Shown in pieces: positions 33 to 31,837 of a DNA stretch of 32,000 nucleotides; position 1 is the stretch's first letter; each line of letters begins with the position of its first letter. Under the pieces are notes generated by a model that saw only the letters and a list, made by a program, of their open reading frames with translations, was not told the DNA's origin and did not search any database. Made by a program: the position numbers and the translations under genes. Source of the DNA: Candidatus Saccharimonadota bacterium (GTDB lineage: Bacteria > Patescibacteriota > Gracilibacteria > BD1-5 > UBA2023); the NCBI GenBank assembly GCA_046350815.1, contig JAXLZO010000001.1:30001-62000 (forward strand), in the 5' to 3' direction.

Positions 33-52
33 CATCTGATGACTCCAATATA

Positions 53-336
53 GATCCTGAACTAAATTCAGGATGATAAAATACAACTCCCCCCTACTCG
101 TAAACTCATTTTTTCCTCATTGAGGGGGATCAAAGTTGAAGTTCTTTATTTCTTCCCCTCTTGAGGGGTGCCGAAGGCGGGGTGGCTGTATTTTTGCCTG
201 AGTCATTTCGAACAAAGTGAGAAATCCCTTCGAATTACCTTTCAGTGAGAATATTATATATAAGGGATCTCTCCTAATGTCGAGATGACGAATATAGAAG
301 AAAAAGTAGGTCCCCTTATCTACGCGAGGATAACAA
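53..336. repeat. Intergenic mosaic hairpin-repeat cluster A
   Basis: Modules: GATCCTGAA-n-TTCAGGATGA hairpin at 53-77. AAAATACAACTCCCCCC at 78-94. CCTCATTGAGGGGG at 113-129. TTTATTTCTTCCCCTCTTGAGGGGTGCCGAAGGCGGGGTGG at 145-185, which is an inverted copy of 15508-15549. GTCATTTCGAACAAAGTGAGAAATC at 202-226. A reversed GTCATCTCGAC..GAGATCC hairpin at 265-289. A degenerate reversed copy of the 25-mer at 311-335. The stretch 53-122 is about 85% identical by eye to 25208-25277. Confidence 0.8.
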
Positions 337-2778: not shown

Positions 2779-4008
2779 TTAAAGATTTTTAGCTACCTTA
2801 CCGAGTTCAAAGAATGGCATCATAATAGCGAGCACAATAACACCAACCATACCACCAACAACAACAATGATAATAGGCTCTAGTGCAGACATGATATTCG
2901 CAACATACTGTTTGAGTTCTTTCTCATAAATAATACCAGTATTCTTGATGCTGTTCGATACCGCACCAGTTTCCTCACCAACATTGATCATATAAGCAAG
3001 ATCCTCCGTAAAATATTTACTCGTAAAACTAAACTCATTTTTACCGCGAGAGAGTCACATGGATTGAGAGAGCTTCATTCATGCTTCTACCTCATTCTTC
3101 ATACGAATGATATCACGCTTGAAATGAATATTTGGAACAACCTTTGCAGTAATAACCAAAGCCTCAAGCATGAGAATGCCAGAATTGAGAAGCAAGGAAA
3201 GCGATGAAATAAAGAGAATAACATTCATCTGCTTTTCCATCCAACCAAAAACTGGGATCTTGAGGGAAATGCGATGAAGCCATATCTGCCCGTAATACGT
3301 TTGTCGGAAGAAATGAAAACCAACGATCAGTGCTACAAAAAACGAAAGAAGAATGATATAGTGATTGCGCATAAAATCAGACACATCGATCATAAATTGT
3401 GTAAGTGCAGGAAGTTGCACTTTTGCTTTTGCAAATGCCCCAGTAATCTTCGGAAGAATAAACACCAACATGAAGATCACGAGCGAGAATGAAAGAAAGA
3501 TGAGAATAGCTGGATATACCATCGCACCACGAATCTTCGAAGTAATCTCAATTTGTCATCGGAGGGTCTCTTCAAGATCTGTGAGTACTCTCGGAAGAGT
3601 ACCGGTTTTCTCCCCTACCTCGATCAATGAAATAATGATAGGATCAAAATATTTGCTATAGTTCTTGAGAGACTCTGATATAGGAATACCATAATCAAGA
3701 TTCTGATGAGTAGATATGAGTATATCCTTGAGTTTTTGATTCTTGATCTGCTTTGAAGCAATTCCCATGGCTGATTTAATATCAATACCCGAAGTGAGAA
3801 AACTCGCAAGTTTTGATATAAAGCGCCATACTTCTTTTTTACTAATACCGCCTATTTGTATCTGAAAATCAATATTATTATTTTGTAGAGATTTTCCTTT
3901 TGGTTGCTCAAGTTTGCTGCGTGCATTTTTGAGCAGCTTATAAAACAGTGCTGGATCAAATGAACCATCGCTGCGATAAAACTTGTGCGAACCAAAAGGA
4001 AATTCCAT
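2779..4008 (-). CDS. pilC: Type IV pilus platform protein PilC / GspF family (409 aa)
   Basis: Three same-frame track ORFs (3556..4008, 3079..3522, 2779..2991, all -) are joined by TGA at 3556-3558 and 3079-3081. The sequence shows the duplicated T2SSF architecture: GIPISESL..FDPIIISLIEVGEKTGTL and AYMINVGEETGAV, with hydrophobic TM segments. The real stop is TAA at 2779-2781. Confidence 0.85.
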
Positions 4009-6028: not shown

Positions 6029-7270
6029 TTAAATCAATTGAAGAGCTTCTGAGAGGGTAGTTTTTCACATAATTGCCTTAATGAGACCATCTTGTAGTAT
6101 CGTGAGCATACCTTGTTCACGTGCCTTACGCTCGATATCAATAGCACTCATCTTCTCGAGAATCAGGGGATGCAATTCTTCGGTGATAGTGAGCACCTCG
6201 TGAGCAGCAATGCGTTTTTGATATCACGTATTATCACACTGATCACATCAGACTTTTACAGCAAATTCAAGATCACCAACTTGCTCATCACTGATAGCCT
6301 CTAGTTGCTCTCGTATGAGCTCTTGTTTTGCGTTATCACTTATTTTTGCATATGCTACACAATTGGGACATACTCGACGAATCAATCGCTGTGAGACAAC
6401 CATTTTTAGAGCCGAAGCAACGAGGTATGGCTCAATTCCCATATTTACCAATCGTTGTACCGTAGCAGATGCAGAATTGGTATGGATAGTCGAAAAAACC
6501 ATATGTCCAGTGAGCGCCGCCTCAATTGCCAACATTGCCGTTTCTCGATCGCGAATTTCACCAACCATAATAATATCAGGATCTTGACGCATCATAGATC
6601 GAAGTCCTGCGGCAAAATCATATCCTATCTCTGGTTTGACCTGACTCTGATTCACAAAAGGCATATTGTACTCGACTGGATCTTCCAGTGTTGAAATATT
6701 ATATTCAAGCGGCTTGAACTCTTTGAGCATGGAAAAAAGCGTGGTTGTCTTTCATGATCCTGTTGGACCAGCGATGAGAATAATGCCATAATGACTTTTC
6801 ATACTCTCACGAATACGATCAAGGTTAAGATCCATGAAATCAAGTCGATCGAGTGACAGCAAAGAGGAATCCTGTCGAAGAAGACGCATTACAATCTTCT
6901 CACCATATACAACCGGTAGTACTGAGACACGAATATCCACTGTCTCTCCCATTTTTTGAGAGATATATGCAATCTTTCCATCTTGCGGACGGAGCTTTTC
7001 ATCAATTCGTAAGCCAGAAAGCACCTTGATACGAGAATTAATTTTGGTGTATTCTTCATAGTTGAGCTTATCAATATAGACAAAATCACCATTTTCACGA
7101 TAACGGACAAGTACATAGTCATGAGTGCACTCAATGTGAATATCCGATGCACCACCTTGCAAAGCAAAATCAAAGAGCTCATCAGTATAACGCACCGTAT
7201 CAGTGATATTGGTTTTGATAGCAACCGTTGCAAATTGTTGTTCATCCCGAATGTGTTGTAGTGTGATCAT
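6029..7270 (-). CDS. pilB: Type IV pilus assembly ATPase PilB / GspE family, short form (413 aa)
   Basis: Track ORFs 6752..7270(-) and 6248..6730(-) plus a tail are in one frame. Walker A is GPTGS[TGA]KTTT with TGA at 6752-6754. Other motifs are MRQDPDIIMVGEIRD, TGHMVFSTIHTN, the tetracysteine CPNC..[TGA]CDQCDNTGY, and the C-terminal G[TGA]KTTLSEALQLI. Stop is TAA at 6029-6031. Confidence 0.9.
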
Positions 7271-7364
7271 AGAGTCAAAGAGTAATATGTCCTTGGAATT
7301 CTACCATATCTTCTTAGTTTACGCAAAATGTCGCCTTGCAAAGGAAGATAATCTGTTTGCAATT

Positions 7365-7394
7365 AAAAAACCCTCTTTTTCAAGAGAGTTTTTT
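7365..7394 (-). terminator. Rho-independent (bidirectional) terminator after the pilin gene
   Basis: AAAAAA-CCCTCTT-TTTC-AAGAGAG-TTTTTT. On the minus strand this gives a 7-bp stem with one G.U pair, followed by a T-run, 19 nt downstream of the pilin stop. Confidence 0.7.
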
Positions 7395-7412
7395 ACAATA
7401 ACAATCGGATGA

Positions 7413-8015
7413 TTAATAAGTTGAATGATGACCAACATCATTATGCACGATTTCACCAGATGCAGAGTTTGCTCGGGCAATAAGTCCCTTTGCACCATTA
7501 CCACCTGTATCAGCAGTAAAATTACCCTTTACATACACTGTTTCAACATCACCATTCATTACTGTAGAAGCAACTTGAAGTGCCGAATTACTAGATGTAC
7601 TAGCATAACCAACAAGAGGAGCACTCTCTGAAGATGTAGCATCACCCATATCCGCCTGAGCAATACCTGGAATTGCTGACCATTGTGGAGCTCCAGCCTT
7701 GATAGTAATAGAAGTAGCGCCGGTATTACCAAATACTGTTTTTCCAGTACCAACTACAATCGTTCGACCAGTAGCTGAACCACTATCAATAAGCGTAGTC
7801 ATGTCAACTGCTGTTGCACCCTTGGTATTCATAGCACTTGAGAGGAGACCCATATTCTCACGAACCTTCGCGGACTTAGCATCCTTTGTATAGTTCTGAT
7901 ATGAGAGGAATCCAACTGTTGCAAGAATTGCAAGAATCGTAATTACCACGATAAGTTCTACGAGAGTAAAACCACCTTTTTGACTCTTGAGAGCCTGCAT
8001 TTGAGAGAGCTTCAT
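7413..8015 (-). CDS. pilA: Type IV major pilin (200 aa)
   Basis: The class III signal [14 protein letters not shown]|[25 protein letters not shown] is the N-methylation motif (G/FTLxE). The rest of the protein is Thr/Ser/Gly/Ala-rich. There is no in-frame TGA. Stop is TAA at 7413-7415. The start is trimmed to the ATG at 8013-8015 rather than the track start at 8105. Confidence 0.85.
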
Positions 8016-8105: not shown

Positions 8106-8316
8106 AAAAAACGTTATTCTTTTTGGAAAAAGAGGAATTTATGATTGTTTTGGTAAAAAAATTATGGTTTCTTCCACTCTTGATGAATGGTGGAATCTTA
8201 AGTATTTGCGACCACAGGGAATGATAGAGTTAGTATTCTATGTTCTTCCTTTAATACACCCACACAATTATAATTTAAGCACAATCATATATGCAATGTA
8301 AATACCAAAAGAGGAA

Positions 8317-8490
8317 GATCCTGAAACAAGTTCAGGATGACAGATAATTTGTTGTCATCCTCGCGGAGGCGGGGATCTACCAATTCAGCAAAGTCTGAGA
8401 TATATTTTCGTCCATCCAGAAGATTCACGACTTATCGCATCTATGCGATTTGCTGCATTCCCTATGGTCACCTGTCTGCACGGGAATGAC
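8317..8490. repeat. Intergenic mosaic hairpin-repeat cluster B
   Basis: Modules: GATCCTGAAACAAGTTCAGGATGACA at 8317-8342. The perfect 25-mer GTCATCCTCGCGGAGGCGGGGATCT at 8354-8378. ATCGCATCTATGCGATTTGCTG at 8434-8455. ATTCCC..CGGGAATGACA at 8457-8490. GGATGACA (8335-8342) and TGTCATCC (8353-8360) are reverse complements, so adjacent modules can also pair with each other. Confidence 0.85.
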
Positions 8491-8533
8491 AGATTTTTAT
8501 GATTTGACTTGAAAATCGAAAATTACCCGATCT

Positions 8534-9810: not shown

Positions 9811-10195
9811 AAGAAGATATCTGAGAAATTGTTGCCTCAAGAAAGAGAAGTACAAAACCAAAAAGAAGTGCGGTCTGCCATATAAGCACTCAGTAATAGT
9901 CAAAAATTCGTATCATACATGCGTAAATAACGAGAAAAAACGCATGACGAAGAGAGGTGTAAATCAAGCTCGCATTGATCGCTCCACGATAGTAGAGTTT
10001 CTTCAGAAAATAAATCACAATCGTCAAATAACTCGTAAGAGCAAGAACGAGCGATACAACCATAAGTGTGAGCATCAATGGAAGATTCCTTTCAGGGGAA
10101 GTATAGAAAAGAAGAATGAGAACCGATAAACTGCTCGATGCACCTATAAGTGTCAAAAGTCCAAGAGTCGTGAGGCGTGGGTGAGATCAAAACAT
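9803..10195 (-). CDS. Small hypothetical integral membrane protein (about 130 aa)
   Basis: Track ORF 9890..10156(-) extends through TGA at 9890-9892 to TAA at 9803-9805, and upstream to ATG at 10193-10195. There are three to four hydrophobic segments. The 3' end overlaps the cmk start by 8 nt. Confidence 0.5.
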
Positions 10196-10328
10196 GATAT
10201 GGATGGTATATCTCCAGAGAAATATGTCAAGAAAAGAAGATTTTTTACGAAAATATGCAAGAAAAGAGTCAACTTTTTGCATTTTTTGAAAATATATCGT
10301 AGTATAGAAAAAAATATCTCTCTTGAGT

Positions 10329-11189: not shown

Positions 11190-11198
11190 ACAAGATTC

Positions 11199-11232
11199 AA
11201 AAAATATTCTCCAATATTGGAGAATATTTTTT
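11199..11232 (+). terminator. Rho-independent bidirectional terminator
   Basis: AAAAAATATTCTCCAATATTGGAGAATATTTTTT is a perfect palindromic stem flanked by an A-run and a T-run, 10 nt after the lipoprotein stop. Confidence 0.8.
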
Positions 11233-11295
11233 GAATCAAAATTGATGATGGGTGGAAAAGATATAAACCTCTTATGGTCGAAATAATAAAAATAT

Positions 11296-11476
11296 GTCAT
11301 CCTCGCGGAGGCGGGGATCTACTTCTAATATCATTTTTGAATATACCATCTATTCATGAGATTCCCGTCTATATAGGAATGGCAAGAGAGTAGATATACA
11401 GAATGCAACCGACCTAAGCCCCTTTCTCAGATGGATAAAATCCGAATATGTCATCCTAAACTTAATTCAGCATCTT
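11296..11476. repeat. Intergenic mosaic hairpin-repeat cluster C
   Basis: Modules: the perfect 25-mer GTCATCCTCGCGGAGGCGGGGATCT at 11296-11320. GATTCCCGTCTATATAGGAATGGCA at 11360-11384. A degenerate GTCATCCTAAACTTAATTCAGCATC at 11449-11473. Confidence 0.8.
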
Positions 11477-14179: not shown

Positions 14180-15187
14180 CTACTGACTCAGGTTACCTTG
14201 ACATGAACTTACGATCCTGATATATACATAATCTTCCATGGAACCAACCGAACCACCCGTGATCATCTGTCTCTGAATATCATTCACGCACATCATGAGT
14301 CTTGCGAGACTTTTAACAGTGTGTTTTCGCTGTATGAGTTTATCGAGAGGATATCTCTTCACACCAAAAATCCCACCGTCAAGATCTCTTCTTGAACCAT
14401 GTGCAAGCAGATCCAGTGCTGCAATATATTTACGAAGTTGGGTTCGGAGGCTGGGTAACACAGACCACATCATACCCATATCACAGAGTCCATACCAAAG
14501 TCTTGCAATTTCTTGAGCATTTCATCAAAGTATCGCATCAAGCATCTCATAGACTTTGAGATCAAGAGATGGCTTGTATGTTCGACTCACTTCTTCAATC
14601 GTCAACGATCATGCATCATCATGATAGCCAAGATGATAAAAATTGAGAGCCTGCTCCGTCACCTGAGATGGAAGAGACATCAAATAATCTAATACAGATC
14701 AAGAGATATTGGGAAGTAGTAATTTTGCCTTTGCCCGAAGCTCAACACCCGAGAGAACATCAAATGACTCGATATAAGCAGATTTTTCTATCCACTTAAA
14801 AAACGATGATTCGATAGAACTACTATCCCCTACTACTATAATCTTTGCATGGTTAGGTATTTGTGTAATATCATATTTAATAGCTGGTGTTTTTGATCGG
14901 CCTGTGCTGGATTCATCATCAACACCCTCCTCATCAGACATATCTTTTTTGGGAGATTTTACCGCTAGAGAATAGCGTGCGATAATAAGTTTACAATCAG
15001 AAAAAAGAGGCATGGCTCTTGCTTCAGCAAGAATATCTTCCCAAGTTGGCGCATCAAGCGATACTACATTGTGCTCACCATAATCTCATGAAAAATCCTG
15101 GATAACAGCTTCGAGACGAGCAAAAAGATTATCCGTATGAATCCCAGTATAGAGTGTGAGCGGCGAAGAAAGAGGAACGGTATTCAT
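14180..15187 (-). CDS. holA: DNA polymerase III delta subunit-like (335 aa)
   Basis: Track ORFs 15086..15376, 14699..15013 and 14180..14479 (all -) share one frame and are joined by TGA. The layout is HolA-like: PLTLYTG..., LDAPTWEDILAEARAMPLFSDCKLII, LKVYEMLDAIL[TGA][TGA]NAQEIARLW. Stop is TAG at 14180-14182. I chose the start MNTVPL at 15185-15187. The ATG at 15226 is an alternative. The track start at 15376 would read into repeat cluster D. Confidence 0.65.
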
Positions 15188-15302
15188 AATAGAAAGTATA
15201 TGAAAATTCGAATGTTTGTCATACATAATGAGACAAGATAGGAGAAAGAGAGAGCAACCCACCAGTCCACTCAATGACGGAGAACAATACAAACAGTTGT
15301 AG

Positions 15303-15549
15303 GTTCCCATCTTGCACGGGAATGACACAAATTTTATGTCATCCTCGCGGAGGCGGGGATCTACAACTATCGACACAGCAAGTTCTTATCATTGAAATGG
15401 GTTGAATCTGATATTTTTTTGATTTGAAAGCTCTATTGAGAATGCAAAAATAGTAGATTCCCGTCTACACGGGAATGACAAATAATTTAAAATCCGCATA
15501 CGTCACTCCACCCCGGCTTCGCCACCCCTCAAAGAGGGGAAGAAATAAA
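15303..15549. repeat. Intergenic mosaic hairpin-repeat cluster D
   Basis: Modules: GTTCCCATCTTGCACGGGAATGACA at 15303-15327. The perfect 25-mer at 15338-15362. GATTCCCGTCTACACGGGAATGACA at 15456-15480 (form ATTCCC-N8-GGGAAT). CCACCCCGGCTTCGCCACCCCTCAAAGAGGGGAAGAAATAAA at 15508-15549, an inverted copy of 145-185. Confidence 0.85.
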
Positions 15550-15550
15550 T

Positions 15551-15584
15551 AAAATCCCTACTCATAAAATAAGTAGGGATTTTA
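15551..15584 (-). terminator. Rho-independent terminator after the giant surface-protein gene
   Basis: AAAATCCCTACT-CATAAAATA-AGTAGGGATTTT is a 9-bp perfect stem with flanking A and T runs, 15 nt downstream of the TAG at 15599-15601. Confidence 0.75.
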
Positions 15585-18500: not shown

Positions 18501-20791
18501 GAGGTTGGAGTAGAGGAGATATGAATAACTGCTGGATCCGTGTTATCTGAAGTATTTATATCACCAGGATTTGATACTGTCGCTGAGTTGGTGATATATC
18601 CGCTTACTGAAGTGCTGGTGACTACAGGAATGTTGATAGTCTGAAATGTTAACCCAGATGCAATATTACCAGTATTGGTACAAGTAAAACTATTGCTAGC
18701 CTGAGAACATGACCATGTTGTGCCAGTCACATTACCCGAGAATGATACTCCTTCCGGAAGTGTATCAGTCACTGTTGTTATACCACTTACACTTGATGGG
18801 CCGTTATTCGTCACAACAACCTTATAGCTGAAAGTAGCAGAATTTGTCTTTTCAATAGCACTACTATTATTTTGAGCATCATTTGCAGGAGCTACGCTAT
18901 CGACATATTTCTTGAGAGAAAGATTGAACGTGTCAGGTATTGTTATTGGTTTACAAGATGTTGCATTACAACCACCAACTCACCAACCAGATTTTGAAGG
19001 ATCGTTTGGATCACACTGCTCACCTTGAATACCAGAAGTAACAAGATCTGTGTCGATATTCGTATCTACGATGCCGTCGCCACACCAAGTGATTTCATAC
19101 TTGGCACATTCTTTATGAACTTGTTGTGAACTTGATCCTATTCGATAATAAATTCCATAGTCAATTTTGAGATTCTCAAAAGAACGAACAGCTGGACGAT
19201 CAATGATATGATATTCTGTCTTTGATTGAATAATCTCTTGATCTACAGTATTGTTAGGGACAACAAAGGATCGATCTCGAATCCAAGGAGTCCATTCAAA
19301 CTCAAACTTTACATTTGATCTATTATAATCAGCCGGCTCTCGAAAAATAGCGGTAAAATTATTGAGAGTAAGATTATTTCACGTTCTATTCGTAAGCTTA
19401 TCTGTAAATCGAAACGTTTGTCCAACTCGGAGTGATCATGTAAATGTCTGGTTACACGCAAGAGAGGTAATGTCTGTTTGACATGTTGCGGTACAATATC
19501 CATCATTACCATTATTAGTACCATTATCACATGACTCATTTCCTTCTTTCTTTCCATCACCACAAACTGGAGTTTTTGTGTAATTTGCAGAACAAGATTG
19601 AGTACCTGATGTATTCTTACATGACCAAGTAAAGTTTTGTGTTAAACCTGAAGTACTACTGCTGAAGGTATCAACATTTCCTACAGAACAAAGATTTGGT
19701 GAATTTGATGAGATAGTTCCATTAAGAGCCCCAACAGAGGTTCAACATTGAGGTGATGGTTGAGTGATATTTGTTAAAGTACAGCTTGTAGTACACATCT
19801 TGCCAGAGGTTACACCATCATTACCATCACATGACTCAAGTCCCTCTTTCTTTCCATCACCACAAACTGGAGTTTTTGTGTAATTTGCAGAACAAGATTG
19901 AGTACCTGATGTATTCTTACATGACCAAGAATAATTTGTCTTCAATCCCTGATCTGTCATGCCAGTAGAGCTACTAAAAGATACTACCGAACCTCATGTA
20001 CAAAGATTTGGTGAATTAGAATTTATAGAATTTATAGAATTTGTAAGTATTCCAGAAGTAGAGCCACAGACAGGTGGTAACTTTGCTGTACAACTTGCAT
20101 TACAGTATCATGGTTGACCATTGTTTATACCATCGTCACAGGATTCTGCTGTCCAAGTCTCACCAGGTCATACTGTTGAATCAGTAACACCATCACCACA
20201 CCAAGTAATAATATATGGTTGACATTCGGTGTGACGAGGGAGATTGACCCAATTATCTGCAGACACTTCTTCTTGTGCCTGTACGAAAAATTTGATAAAA
20301 ATATCAGCCGTTGTATCACGACTAAGTGGATGATCATAAACATTATAATAGCCACCATATTGAGGGCCACGCGAAGGTGCATAGCTCGTTAAAATTGGTA
20401 ACCGTGAATTCCCAGGAATAATCATACTACTATCAACTATCTCCTGAGTTCTAAAAAGAATCTCACCCTTTCAATTACCAGTCCCATCAGAAGTTCCACC
20501 AAATACTGACGAACCACCGCCTGTACCACCACTCTCATTAAAATCCATGAGCTCGGAAATATAGTCGCGACCTAGGTCCGTAATCCTGTGCCTGTTGGAA
20601 GAGTTATTGATATATTCATCTCCAAACTTATAACGCTGATCATAGCGAAGATACAATGGGGAGAATGACTGGTCACAAGAAACTCACTCACCTGGATAGG
20701 CAGGTGCTGCGAGTAATCAGTATGGTGCAAAAGTAACTGCACCTATTCATAGGACCGTTGTAAGGGTGATGAATTTGAAAAAGTTTTTCAT
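15599..20791 (-). CDS. Giant secreted Cys-rich surface protein with CGDG-type repeats and DUF11-like repeats (1730 aa)
   Basis: Track ORFs 20471..20656, 20168..20425, 19742..19960, 17756..18814, 17156..17443 and 16067..16318 (all -) share one frame (top coordinate = 1 mod 3). Manual translation of the gaps found only TGA (about 28 in total) and no TAA or TAG between ATG 20789-20791 and TAG 15599-15601. The signal peptide is MKNFFKFITLTTVL.IGAVTFAP. There are two ITWCGDG..CD..N modules and repeated C.NTSGTQSCSANYTKTPVCGDGKKEG.ESCD modules. Three DUF11-like repeats occur, e.g. ATFSYKVVVTNNGPSSVSGITTVTDTLPEGVSF and ATFNYRIVVTNNGPAAINGTTFVSDTFPAGVE. Further modules are CGNGTLEVGETCD and CGNGRLDAGEECD. 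Confidence 0.8.
19545..19929 (-). repeat. Internal 300-bp-period tandem duplication inside the giant gene
   Basis: 19545-19629 and 19845-19929 are identical at all 85 positions at an offset of exactly 300 nt. Flanking sequence is similar but diverged. Each copy encodes (T/S)WSCKNTSGTQSCSANYTKTPVCGDGKKEG. Confidence 0.9.
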
Positions 20792-24322: not shown

Positions 24323-24985
24323 CTAGAAGTTAGCAGCTACAGTGACAATTACCTTATCAGTATAGCTTGTCGCTGGCGTATCTTCAGCAACCTTTGCAGA
24401 TGCAGTAAAAGTAAAGTCATCAATACCAACTGAAGTCTTGGATGGTTTGTTGGTGGTGTAGAGAGTGTAGGCAGTGACCGTACTGTTGATCTCACTACTG
24501 AGATTGGCAGTTTGAGTGAATCCAGGAGCAACACTATCAGATGCACCAGAGAGGGTAGTTGTCCACTTGTAGCTTTCAGCAATACCATCAGCAACGAGTG
24601 TATTGAGGATATCACCAGATGCAGAGAGCATACCTCCATTGAGAGATTTAGCAGTGACTGATGCACCAGCTGATGCATTGGTACCGATTTCCATAGTTAC
24701 TGATCCTGATGTATAGGTAGTAGGATTGAGGTATCCGAGATCAATAGTGTCTGCGGAGATTGCCATATTGAGGATAGGGCGTACTTTTGCTTTTACGATG
24801 ATACCATTGATGGTACCAGAGGCAGAACCTGGAATGGTATCATTCCAGTTGATCGCGGTGGTGAGACCACCGGATCCGGTAACCGTACCGGTACCGATCT
24901 GAGAAGCAAAAGCTGATGATGCACCGAACGCAGCAAATGCTGCTACGGTAGAGAGGGCGATAAATCGCTTGGTATTGGTATTCAT
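24323..24985 (-). CDS. Secreted beta-rich Thr/Ser/Gly/Ala-rich protein, candidate abundant surface or fibre subunit (220 aa)
   Basis: The Sec signal is MNTNTKRFIALSTVAAFAAFGASSAFA|SQ. There is no in-frame TGA despite 20 Gly by hand count. The protein ends YTDKVIVTVAANF. It has its own promoter-like element and terminator. The start is trimmed from the track start at 25120 to the ATG at 24983-24985. Confidence 0.75.
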   Translation of the reverse strand: MNTNTKRFIALSTVAAFAAFGASSAFASQIGTGTVTGSGGLTTAINWNDTIPGSASGTINGIIVKAKVRPILNMAISADTIDLGYLNPTTYTSGSVTMEIGTNASAGASVTAKSLNGGMLSASGDILNTLVADGIAESYKWTTTLSGASDSVAPGFTQTANLSSEINSTVTAYTLYTTNKPSKTSVGIDDFTFTASAKVAEDTPATSYTDKVIVTVAANF

Positions 24986-25092
24986 AACAATAACAATGAA
25001 AGAAGATGTAATATATAACAAAGCAATCATATGTACGATATGCTTGTTCACTCTCCAGACTACCCTATGTTTTTCTCTTACGCAAATAATCG

Positions 25093-25120
25093 AATATACA
25101 AAAAATGAGTTTGTGTTCAA
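25093..25120 (-). promoter_or_regulatory. Sigma70-like promoter for the 220-aa secreted-protein gene
   Basis: On the minus strand: TTGAAC (25120-25115), a 16-nt spacer, then TATATT (25098-25093). It lies about 100 nt upstream of the ATG. Confidence 0.4.
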
Positions 25121-25170
25121 AATAATAAATGATAACCGTCTATCATCCTCACGAAAAAGAAGCCCAAAGA

Positions 25171-25518
25171 GTAAAACGAGTCAGAGATTTGTATTTGAGG
25201 CGAGGAAGATCCTGAATCAAGTTCAGGATGACAAAATACAACTCTCACTGCTCGTAAACTCGTTTTTTCGACTCATTGCATCTATGTAATTCGCTGGACT
25301 ACTGAAGTTTACCCCATCATTGAAGGGTCTATGAGAAAATTTTTTTGTTCCTATCAAACCTCAATCAGTCCAAGAAAGTGTAACAACACAATAGTTCGGA
25401 GAATCAAAGTATGTCATCCTCGCGGAGGCGGGGATCTTGTATTCTTGTATTTGTCTTTATGTCTTTATGTATTTTGTTCCCCCTCATTGAGGGGGTTAGG
25501 GGGAGTTGTATTTTTTTT
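25171..25518. repeat. Intergenic mosaic hairpin-repeat cluster E
   Basis: Modules: GATCCTGAATCAAGTTCAGGATGACA at 25208-25233. AAAATACAACTC..CTCGTAAACTCGTTTTTTC at 25233-25270, homologous to 78-116. ATTGCATCTATGTAATTCGCTG at 25275-25296. The perfect 25-mer at 25413-25437. CCCCCTCATTGAGGGGG at 25479-25495. GGGGGAGTTGTATTTT at 25499-25514. Confidence 0.85.
25233..25514. mobile_element. Possible MITE-like unit bounded by 12-bp inverted repeats
   Basis: AAAATACAACTC (25233-25244) and GAGTTGTATTTT (25503-25514) are perfect inverted repeats enclosing about 280 bp of hairpin modules. A shorter analogous pair occurs in cluster A: 78-94 against the imperfect GGCTGTATTTTT at about 184-195. There is no coding capacity, and no target-site duplication was verified. 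Confidence 0.3.
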
Positions 25519-25527
25519 GAAATATAT

Positions 25528-25554
25528 AAAAAACGCAGGAATCTGCGTTTTTTA
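25528..25554 (-). terminator. Rho-independent bidirectional terminator downstream of the CHAP gene
   Basis: AAAAAACGCAG-GAAT-CTGCGTTTTTT has an 8-bp stem including A/T extension, with flanking A and T runs. Confidence 0.7.
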
Positions 25555-25559
25555 TTTCA

Positions 25560-25632
25560 CTGTCATCAGTCTATCATTAGCCTATCATCAGTCTATAATC
25601 AATTTTTGATCTATCATCAATCTTTAATCTAC
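25560..25632 (+). repeat. Phased 11-bp direct-repeat array (Pho-box-like architecture)
   Basis: Units: CTGTCATcagt (25560-70), CTATCATtagc (25571-81), CTATCATcagt (25582-92), CTATAATcaat (25593-603), a 7-nt spacer, CTATCATcaat (25611-21), CTTTAATctac (25622-32). The last two units overlap the CHAP stop codon at 25624-25626. Confidence 0.85.
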
Positions 25633-26226
25633 ATAGATGTATCACTTGATAGCAGGATGATCTTTGGGGATTTCTCGGATGGTTACGGTGTTGAGTTTTT
25701 GATAGTTCATGTCTTTGATGATGATCTTGGTATCTTTGATTCAGACAACAATTCATACATGTCAGTAGTAGGGATTGTATCCATGTCATTCAAGCTGTAT
25801 GATAGCACCAACAGCTGGGGCTTTACCAGTAGGTACTCATTGAGCTTTGGCATTACGGATCCATTGGTTTGCATTTCATCTCCAGGTTACACTCTTGTTC
25901 TGTGCGACGAAAGCGGTACAGTTTCACCAAGAAAAACGGGGATTATGACCATGATCTTTGATGCGATACGTCTTGTATCATCCCGTAAAAGGATCATCAG
26001 TATCAAGAAGACTTTCTGATTTTTTTGGTATTTCTGAGTGAATACTGGCTCATGTTTGATACACTTCAGCAGGTAGCATAAAAGATGGAGCATCCGTCAC
26101 ATAGTGACCTCATACATTAGCCGGATGGGACTCAATGATCTGGAAGGCAAATACTTGAGAAAAGCTTACCATCACACAGATAAGTGTCGTTGTAACCGTT
26201 GCTATCGATCTCGTATAACTATTCAT
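25624..26226 (-). CDS. Secreted CHAP-domain peptidoglycan amidase/endopeptidase (200 aa)
   Basis: This gene is visible only with TGA=Gly, reading through about 11 in-frame TGA. The signal peptide is MNSYTRSIATVTTLICVMVSFSQVFA. The catalytic region is FSW[TGA]NCTAFVAQNKSVTWR[TGA]NANQWIRNAKAQ[TGA]VPTGKAPAVGAIIQLE...Y[TGA]HV[TGA]IVV[TGA]IKDTKIIIKDMNY, with the Cys...His layout of CHAP. ATG is at 26224-26226 and stop TAA at 25624-25626. Confidence 0.8.
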
Positions 26227-30678: not shown

Positions 30679-31814
30679 CCCTTATGACCGCGCTCGGGGC
30701 ATGAAATTTGGGTGATGAACTGATTGCTTGGTGCGAGTACCGATGTATGCGTGAATATTTTCCAGAAACACAAATCTTTGTATACAACTATGAAGATTCA
30801 AATGGTCTTTTTTTAAAATTCGCAAAAAAAGACAAATCAGTACGCATGAGGCCATATTTTCCATTGAATATTTGCAAATATCCATTTCGTAATATAAGAG
30901 CACTCTGGAAAATGATCTTTGATATTGCTACATCAGATCTCCTCATTATTGGAGGGGGTGGACTTTGGTACGATAATGAACTTGGACAAAACCCTCATAT
31001 TCAACGATTGCAATGGATGCTACGAGTATGGATCGCAAAAGCTTTTCGCACATCTATACTCTTTTGGTGAATTGGTATTGATGTTGATAAAAAACATATC
31101 GCAAAATATCGATCAATATTTTCTGGAAGCAATACTCAAATCATCGTGCGTGACCATCATAGTCATGATTTACTGGAAAAAATTTGAATCTCTTCAATCA
31201 TTTCAACCGATTCGGTTATTACACTTTCAAGATATTTTCAAGAACTTCTCACACAAAATAAATCAGAATCATCTGAGAAGCTTCATATTGGAATCAGCGT
31301 GCGTTCAGGGTATCACCATGATGAAATTGATATTTTGAAGGATGTTGTGGGGCAACTACGCGAAAAATACTCAAATTGTGTTATTTATGGGCTCTCATAT
31401 TCACATCGAGAGGACAATCCTATTATCAGCGATACAACGCTCCTAAAACTCTTAAATTTAGATCAAATCATCATTGATCACGCAGAGATCGTCAAGCTAC
31501 TACCAACGCTTGATATCATGATAGCCACTCGATTGCATGCGATGATCACCGCTCGTCTCCTCAAAATACCCACACTCTGCCTCTCTTATGCAAGAAAAAC
31601 ACGCGAAGTATTTGTAACACTCAATGATCTGTGATACTGATACGGCATTATCACAGATCTTCAAACACTCAATTATGAAAACATTGAGCATCTCTTGATA
31701 GAATTCGAAAAAGGAAGAAACAATTTTTGACAAACAAAGCACAAAATTCAAAGAGAAAATCTGACTGATGAGAAAACAATTCTCAATTGGATATCTCAAA
31801 AAAATCCATCATAG
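30666..31814 (+). CDS. Polysaccharide pyruvyl transferase family protein (CsaB/WcaK-like, 382 aa)
   Basis: MKKITLMTALGA[TGA]NLGDELI is the GxGNxGDE motif. Other motifs are LIIGGGGLWYD and MIATRLHAMITARLLKIPT. Track ORFs 30708..31070 and 31299..31634 are in the same frame. Stop is TAG at 31812-31814. Confidence 0.75.
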
Positions 31815-31833
31815 CTATGATGGATTTTTTTGA
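31799..31833 (+). terminator. Rho-independent terminator overlapping the pyruvyl transferase stop
   Basis: AAAAAATCCATCATAGCTATGATGGATTTTTTT is a perfect 10-bp stem followed by a T-run. Confidence 0.75.
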
Positions 31834-31837
31834 GCAC

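Follow-up and report, generated by a model that had tools for sequence, protein, structure and literature searches.

TGTC-tagged REP hairpins in five intergenic clusters of a code-25 Gracilibacteria-like genome, their turnover in relatives and their wide occurrence

Gene content and hairpin clusters of the locus

The window, by which we mean the whole 32,000-nt stretch of DNA analysed here, has a GC content of 39% and is Gracilibacteria-like DNA using genetic code 25, in which TGA is read as glycine. When TGA is taken as a stop codon the window splits into short ORFs, whereas taking it as a sense codon gives ORFs of 1730 and 1029 aa. The code was assigned as 25 because both TGA codons of trmD align with a conserved glycine, kept in 75/81 and 77/81 homologs, and the nearest named TrmD relatives are those of Gracilibacteria. 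The corrected gene map holds a type IV pilus operon, cmk, galU, trmD, an FKBP gene, a holA-like gene, the 1730-aa and 1029-aa surface-type proteins, a small secreted protein, a CHAP-like gene and fmt. A 112-nt direct repeat in the gene of the 1730-aa surface protein (19526-19637 and 19826-19937, 95% identical, 300-nt spacing) is an internal duplicated domain. Non-coding DNA accounts for 13.9% of the window (4448 nt).

Scanning for structure under relaxed rules revealed 12 short hairpin units in five intergenic clusters, plus decayed relics. A strict scanner based on structure only, which required GTC, then an AT-initiated 8-bp stem and then a 4-5 nt loop, returned seven units, every one of them within the five clusters, versus 1.6 in shuffled sequences. 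These are the five intergenic mosaic clusters of GTCAT-headed hairpins reported in a preliminary description of this DNA, and each module listed there was recovered at or beside its expected position. The accompanying claim that the clusters make up most of the non-coding DNA did not survive: with the cluster coordinates of that description, they cover 1234 of the 4448 non-coding nt (27.7%), and only 5 of the 11 intergenic regions with a length of 130 nt or more are occupied. Known RNA genes that might account for the clusters were sought by searching the window against Rfam (E ≤ 1) and for tRNAs, which gave no family above threshold and no tRNA.

Three types of hairpin, units A, B and C (Table 1), share a common build, namely an unpaired TGTC tag, an 8-bp AT-initiated stem, a 4-5 nt loop and a CT-tail. 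They are GC-rich, non-coding palindromes 26-29 nt in length. Unit A reads TGTC / ATCCTCGC / GGAG / GCGGGGAT / CTAC, with one T.G pair on the tag strand; unit B reads TGTC / ATCCTGAA / N5 / TTCAGGAT / CTTC; and unit C reads TGTC / ATTCCCGT / GTAG / ACGGGAAT / CTAC. For unit A, the 25-mer GTCATCCTCGCGGAGGCGGGGATCT is present in four copies with 0 mismatches, all on the + strand (at 8354, 11296, 15338 and 25413), and in none of the shuffles. The unit B pattern GATCCTGAA-N5-TTCAGGATGAYA occurs at 53, 8317 and 25208 (shuffles 0), the GATCCTGAA...TTCAGGATGACA hairpin being represented by three copies and one degenerate inverted copy. Hairpins of the unit C type, ending in ...GGGAATGACA, number three, at 8468/8457-8491, 15304-15327 and 15457-15480, with one more degenerate copy (0.02 in shuffles). 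An ATTCCC-N8 module with the dRS3 pattern of Neisseria had been listed among the components of the clusters; this holds exactly for a sole copy of ATTCCC-N8-GGGAAT, at 15457-15480, and the other copies of unit C have N9, N21 or degenerate arms.

Table 1. Hairpin units, interleaved modules and neighbouring structures in the window (HH, tags outside; TT, tags inside).
Feature	Coordinates	Strand	Remarks
Unit A, copy 1, perfect	8353..8378	+	Sharp repeat edges at 8353/8378
Unit A, copy 2, perfect	11295..11320	+	
Unit A, copy 3, perfect	15337..15362	+	
Unit A, copy 4, perfect	25412..25437	+	Preceding A makes an ATG that seeds a spurious ORF
Unit B	8316..8342	-	Loop CTTGT; TT dimer with A at 8353, spacer 10-12 nt
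Unit B	25207..25233	-	In relatives, synteny and contigs break at its outer edge (25205)
Unit B, decayed tag (GATGATA)	52..78	-	
Unit B, degenerate, opposite orientation	11449..11474	+	
Unit C	15455..15480	-	dRS3 pattern; makes an HH pair with A at 15337
Unit C' (GTTCCC...GGGAATGACA, one mismatch and one wobble)	15303..15327	-	TT dimer with A at 15337
Unit C variant, 17-nt loop	8457..8491	-	HH partner of A at 8353
Unit C, degenerate (AGATTCCCGTCTATATAGGAATGGCA)	11359..11385	-	
Decayed A-like relic (TGTT / ATCCTCGC / ... / GGGGAC / CTAC)	305..335	-	Read from the sequence
F block (AAAATACAACTCCCCC...CCTCATTGAGGGGG), non-REP hairpin module	78..130	+	Depth ~16-30 in relatives
F block, inverted	25477..25512	-	CCCCCTCRTTGA bounds ~180-nt indel versus L150/L176
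D motif, copy 1	8434..8455	+	
D motif, copy 2	25275..25296	+	Within 45-nt block missing from L150/L176
41-nt unit	145..185	+	Low-copy in relatives
41-nt unit, inverted	15508..15549	-	Adjoins terminator of the 1730-aa gene; 92-95% complementary to 145-185
Intrinsic terminator of the 1730-aa gene, non-REP	15550..15584	-	Cluster 4 units lie downstream of it
Perfect palindrome, 22-nt arms, no spacer	11194..11237	.	Separated from the galU stop codon by the cluster 3 units
154-nt block (A, spacer, degenerate C, spacer)	11291..11444	.	In the window, not in L120; from alignment

Other modules are interleaved with the units. The F block recurs at 25233-25274 and, inverted, in cluster 5, and the 41-nt unit of the preliminary description was found again together with its inverted copy. 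The palindrome at 11194-11237 lies between convergent genes and is probably a bidirectional terminator. A second perfect palindrome is found at a gene end (31795-31834, 20-nt arms, no spacer), where the Logan contig L125 ends, and it too is probably a bidirectional terminator.

With regard to genomic position, clusters 1 and 3 lie between convergent genes, in the interval from a stop codon to a hairpin terminator that serves both genes, and clusters 2, 4 and 5 lie between same-strand genes, where their units are downstream of intrinsic terminators, in the gap ahead of the next gene. No REP units occur in the divergent intergenic regions of the window. The association with operon ends and gene-pair orientation raised in the preliminary description thus takes the form of unidirectional or convergent sites only, in agreement with the published bias. 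One divergent intergenic region, of 512 nt (9811-10322), separates cmk from the gene of a 288-aa lipoprotein-like protein and contains zero REP units, Rfam hits or convincing ORFs; long gaps are present at the same position in the related contigs L120 and L121.

The units of the window pair into doublets with imperfect inverted ends, three of them with tags outside (HH; A..C, spacers of 40-96 nt) and two with tags inside (TT). Each unit was found to fold as DNA as predicted, and unit A does so with -6.3 kcal/mol on the + (tag) strand versus -4.3 kcal/mol on the - strand. The facing GTCAT/ATGAC heads at 8335-8360, for which alternative folds had been proposed, are real, and in this abutted TT pair (B at 8316 and A at 8353) the DNA fold allows tag-tag pairing in a three-way junction. 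Moreover, the A and C units that form the doublet of cluster 4 can zip together as a single long hairpin.

Read as protein, unit A gives ...HPRGGGD... from one strand and ...DPRLREDD... from the other. From the ATG formed by A+TGTCAT at its fourth copy starts a spurious 221-aa ORF (25411-26076, +; 'MSSSRRRGS...'), which is called as a gene in a public contig (L125 208-873) and lies opposite the CHAP-like gene (25624-26226, -). The ORFs 14180-15376 and 24323-25417 are likewise artificially lengthened at their 5' ends by unit A.

Relation to known repeat families and occurrence across bacteria and phages

CGTC REPs were defined by Di Nocera, De Gregorio & Rocco in 2013 (PMC3733652) as hairpins with the tag CGTC, which is often TGTC and for which CCTC is also accepted, a stem of 8-9 bp with A-T and T-A at its first and second positions, a loop of 4 nt (family 1) or 5 nt (families 2-4), and a 3-nt tail with the consensus CCA. 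In that survey dRS3 is the CGTC-1 family, CGTC REPs were present in five phyla, and no dedicated transposase was found for them, nor was one found in later surveys. In the window, GTC is the tag of 7/7 strict units, the preceding base always being T, as in the TGTC variant (the tag of one B copy, at 54-77, is decayed). The stems ATCCTCGC/GCGGGGAT, ATCCTGAA/TTCAGGAT and ATTCCCGT/ACGGGAAT conform to the 8-9 bp AT-start rule, with which the DNA folds agree, and the loops have 4 nt in A (GGAG) and C (GTAG) and 5 nt in B, one C variant having 17 nt. A short tail is present, reading CTA, CTT or CTG versus the consensus CCA. In addition, the units are multi-copy and intergenic (12 in 32 kb, in unidirectional or convergent regions only), they form inverted doublets in which the HH form predominates (3 HH vs 2 TT in the window), and a dedicated flanking transposase was found neither in 119 hairpin loci of other genomes nor in the loci of the lineage.

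Judged by their sequence and predicted folds, the modules are CGTC/TGTC-tagged REP elements, members of the superfamily whose CGTC-1 family is dRS3 of Neisseria. The likeness to NIMEs and dRS3 pointed out in the preliminary description is therefore closer than was claimed there: as the units conform to the published definition of CGTC REPs and dRS3 is CGTC-1, the formal resemblance becomes one of family membership. The tag, AT-stem, loop (4 nt in A and C, 5 nt in B), presence of a tail, intergenic site, lack of a transposase, inverted doublets with spacers of 20-100 nt and near-same sequences in distant phyla are all shared with CGTC-1 and CGTC-2 REPs. The differences are that the tail here is CTA/CTT and not CCA, that TT doublets (spacers of 10-12 nt) are as prominent as tags-outside ones, and that the host, a ~39% GC code-25 Gracilibacteria-like bacterium, falls outside the five phyla of 2013.

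We then compared the clusters with other systems. NIMEs are defined as 20-bp dRS3 inverted repeats that flank RS elements of ~50-150 bp, which belong to repeat families (PMC1797815). Here, there is one exact dRS3 (unit C at 15457-15480), and A..C pairs flank 40-96 nt; as in NIMEs, GC-rich hairpins flank AT-rich spacers, some of which are repeat families (that of cluster 2, with the D motif, is one, and that of cluster 4 is unique), and module content varies between strains. However, NIMEs were described as Neisseria-specific, with ~200-700 dRS3 per genome and >100 RS families (PMC1797815), whereas the arrays of the window have 2-3 units, and most of their left-hand units are of the ATCCTCGC type and not of the ATTCCC type. 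In Neisseria, an IS110-type recombinase integrates at dRS3; neither an Nf-type filamentous phage nor an IS110 recombinase of the NIME kind was seen in the window or the lineage DNA.

GTAG REPs, BIMEs and REPINs likewise consist of tagged hairpins, form inverted doublets that zip into a long hairpin, and lie in intergenic, mosaic clusters. They differ in the tag, which is GTC(AT) here vs GT[AG]G, and in that no RAYT/REPtron was found; moreover, GTAG REPs are species- or genus-specific, whereas the hairpin of the window is nearly identical across phyla. Membership in the GTAG REP / BIME / REPIN-RAYT group was rejected on account of the GTC-AT tag and the absence of a Y1 transposase in the window or related loci, so that the REP-associated tyrosine transposase envisaged in the preliminary description has no counterpart there. 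Classification as a MITE was rejected as well, since the direct repeats at the indel edges described below (13 and 12 nt) are module sequence and not duplicated target, and no parent IS was found. RPE-4 and RPE-6 of Rickettsia (CGTC-4 and CGTC-1, respectively, per PMC3733652) belong to the same superfamily and also reside in a small reduced genome; they have in-frame intragenic copies, like the phage terminase genes presented below, and none lies within the genes of the window. In the literature we found no report of such repeats in Patescibacteria or Gracilibacteria, which bears out the earlier statement that they had not been characterised in code-25 CPR lineages.

To see how far the hairpin extends, the core of unit A, with its loop left free, was searched in species-representative genomes (20 specified bases, ~1 chance match expected in 596 Gb). 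Exact matches came from >119 genome stretches, which span a dozen phyla or more and include, by record title, alpha-, beta-, gamma-, delta-, epsilon- and zetaproteobacteria, Bacteroidota, Chlorobiota, Leptospirales, Acidobacteriota, Hydrogenedentota, Cloacimonadales, Abditibacteriia, Endomicrobium, Bdellovibrionales and many CPR groups including Gracilibacteria. The lineage specificity implied in the preliminary description has thus to be abandoned, the same hairpin being present across many bacterial phyla. In 119 of these loci, GTC is preceded by C in 162 tags and by T in 107, and the tail is CCA in 180/280 and CTT/CTA/CTG in 55/280, the tail of the window being a minority variant. The commonest partner stem is the dRS3-type ATTCCCGC, and dimers are tags-outside in 79 cases vs tags-inside in 12, with a median HH gap of 32 nt, the predominance of HH being that of the 2013 survey.

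Within four sets of loci (L056; L035/L055/L061; L065/L076/L078/L118; L009/L021/L034), at least 40 nt of sequence on the tag side of hairpin A are conserved between copies, and these conserved tag-side flanks, found in unrelated genomes, suggest longer composite elements that end in the hairpin. The hairpin was also present on ~14 viral contigs. Two of these, L187 and L183 (IMG/VR 3300037245_002917 and 3300037246_003066), are bona fide phages with terminase, portal and protease genes, and both carry two copies of hairpin A 63 nt apart (L187 5253-5339; L183 ~2963-3049), in-frame in the large terminase gene and translated KMDPRVREDD twice; in total, 6-8 hairpin copies are found on these phage contigs. 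Three copies with a regular 63-nt period are present in a Rikenellaceae genome (L069 4805-4954).

Recurrence and turnover in code-25 relatives

The lineage-specific 26-mer, with its GGAG loop and CT tail, gave 55 exact matches in metagenome contigs, which are mostly TGA-recoded, have a GC content of 0.38-0.43 and, in their homologous parts, match the window with 74-92% identity. Allowing few mismatches, 356 kb of these contigs contain unit A 109 times, unit B 49 times, unit C 16 times, and the D motif and the 41-mer 5 and 3 times, respectively. Most of these occurrences are at loci other than orthologs of the window, and the modules therefore do recur elsewhere in related metagenome contigs. 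Repeat depth over the clusters of the window has sharp edges at 8353/8378 (unit A) and 25205/25233 (unit B), and the D block, the F block and the inverted F block behave as independent repeat families, the spacer of cluster 4 being unique. Arrays of relatives, with 5-7 units, are longer than those of the window, one ~2-kb stretch comprising 5 A and 5 B units, and relatives also hold two copies of a ~139-nt A-D-C doublet homologous to 8353-8491 of the window. At one locus, recovered in two assemblies (L177 1600-3600 and L174 140-2120), arrayed A and B units, five of each, bracket ~1 kb in which small opposite-strand ORFs may be present.

Two contigs, L120 (TrmD 96% identical) and L121 (78%), show synteny with the window. 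L120 has clusters 2 and 4 in identical form and lacks, at cluster 3, the 154-nt block of the window (Table 1). This block is flanked on both sides by a 13-nt direct repeat, AATATGTCATCCT, which is the head of two same-orientation units, its right-hand copy being the head of the degenerate unit B at 11449..11474. At the same site, L121 has a third arrangement, in which A is joined straight to a headless B. Because L121 also has A there, the state of L120 is most simply explained by a deletion between the direct repeats. Almost no units are found in the rest of the 13.8 kb of L121, which carries a HicA toxin gene (PF07927; 890-1120) upstream of its holA ortholog.

At cluster 5, the contigs L150 and L176 have a further block of ~180 nt (inverted D, B, F) with the direct repeat CCCCCTCRTTGA at its edges, and are without the 45-nt D block of the window. 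In L151 and L152, similarity to the window starts a few bases before unit B (25205), and the upstream DNA is unrelated. Assemblies also break at these places, as L120 ends within cluster 4, L125 begins at unit B of cluster 5, and Logan contigs from the window's own region are short and end at clusters. Clusters 3 and 5 thus display the module-level turnover between orthologous intergenic regions that was anticipated in the preliminary description, and the arrays are reshuffled by indels that start and stop within repeated module sequence. For the two well-resolved indels a deletion between direct repeats is a sufficient explanation, no insertion event having been directly captured; active transposition in this lineage is therefore a proposal. 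Moreover, the four perfect 25/25 copies and the exact conservation across phyla imply recent spread, gene conversion or selection, and fit poorly with purely neutral junk.

The comparison with L120 also revealed that the pilin next to cluster 2 is 70% identical (protein) to its ortholog, all neighbouring genes being 96-100% identical. Nucleotide identity is 50-76% over 7395-7890 and is back to 100% by 7940; the divergent block as a whole (~6950-7900) covers the 5' part of pilB and the C-terminal part of the pilin, and, from the sequences compared, it looks like allele replacement or diversifying selection. It ends within the gene, ~400 nt short of cluster 2, and the repeats do not bound it.

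Origin of the arrays, alternative readings and implications

An enzyme that could be linked to the hairpins was looked for in several ways. All-vs-all ORF clustering of the 119 hairpin loci gave families present in at most five loci each, all of them housekeeping, and no transposase was found in the long conserved flanks of the Hydrogenedentota, Abditibacteriia and gammaproteobacterial loci. Code-25 ORF clustering of ~400 kb of lineage DNA, aimed at multi-copy enzymes, retrieved only repeat-derived pseudo-ORFs and orthologs, and no recombinase is present among the window proteins (Pfam, ~32 kb); a mobilising gene may lie elsewhere in the genome.

Taking these results together, we regard as probable an account in which the units are CGTC/TGTC REPs, mostly neutral passengers, that are seeded in trans and stand in arrays reshaped by recombination. 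According to this account, the arrays would be reshaped mainly by recombination or replication slippage between repeated units, while new copies would arise in trans through an activity recognising the tagged hairpin, probably in single-stranded form. The units themselves would be tolerated, largely neutral passengers piling up in the gap after gene ends, and their near-identity across phyla may come from constraint at the recognition step, from horizontal transfer (phage-borne), or from both. A bolder proposal is that the CGTC/TGTC hairpins are one pan-bacterial mobile element, kept nearly identical in at least a dozen phyla through copying or repair by a universal host activity instead of a dedicated transposase, and moving on phages or via DNA uptake, which we hold to be improbable. 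If true, their abundance in a ~1-Mb, transposase-poor code-25 epibiont would narrow the search for that activity to the few genes that its lineage has in common with Proteobacteria; alternatively, the epibiont would acquire the hairpins from its hosts.

A different role for the units would be at the RNA level, as 3' UTR hairpins that stabilise mRNA or as auxiliary terminators, kept by selection on the transcript. RNA roles are preferred for many REPs by Di Nocera et al. (PMC3733652), and the units of clusters 1 and 3 do sit within a 3' UTR, before the shared bidirectional terminator, B and C receive weak terminator-like scores on the - (gene) strand, and the T.G pair of unit A is a legal wobble on the tag strand only. 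Nevertheless, the units of clusters 2, 4 and 5 lie beyond strong intrinsic terminators, and all four copies of A are antisense to the flanking - strand genes, so that the mRNAs would have a C.A mismatch at that pair. Moreover, in a strand-asymmetry test for single-strand function carried out on unselected units, G.T was not clearly favoured over A.C (7 vs 7 and 17 vs 9), and whole blocks are gained or lost in close relatives with no visible compensation. We consequently find an RNA function as the main explanation unlikely, though the copies within 3' UTRs may have one. It is less likely still that the arrays are selected recombination hot spots, as the NIME hypothesis would have it. Every cluster adjoins at least one secreted or surface gene (pilin, 1730-aa, 220-aa secreted, lipoprotein-like 288-aa), but surface proteins fill much of the window, which makes adjacency weak evidence, and the secreted 220-aa gene beside cluster 5 is 98% conserved. 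The pilin by cluster 2, diverged from L120 far more than its neighbours, would suit a hot spot, yet its divergent block stops inside the gene, at a distance from the cluster; and while synteny breaks at a unit edge, and dRS3 of Neisseria is targeted by an IS110-type recombinase, a recombinase gene was found neither in the window nor in the lineage DNA.

Hardly any credence can be given to readings of the units as remnants of a CRISPR, palindromes arisen by chance or an already known structured RNA gene. The three copies at a regular 63-nt period in L069 look superficially CRISPR-like; this reading was rejected, because the same period recurs in-frame in the phage terminase gene, which makes it a duplicated insertion and not an array. 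In the window the copies are dispersed, in both orientations and at irregular spacing, the Rfam and tRNA scans remained below threshold, and shuffles give 0-0.02 for the repeat patterns.

The CGTC/TGTC REP superfamily itself is known already; new are its presence and turnover in a code-25 CPR lineage, the wider range of an exactly conserved hairpin, and its carriage by phages. In practical terms, the units break assemblies and seed false gene calls, and annotation pipelines for CPR genomes should mask them. What mobilises CGTC-type REPs such as dRS3 and the Rickettsia RPEs, for which there is no linked transposase, has been a puzzle since at least 2013, and the occurrence in code-25 CPR, the exactness across phyla and the phage carriage all bear on it. 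Overall, these findings extend the range of the family well past five phyla, and provide a small-genome system in which candidate host factors could be listed.
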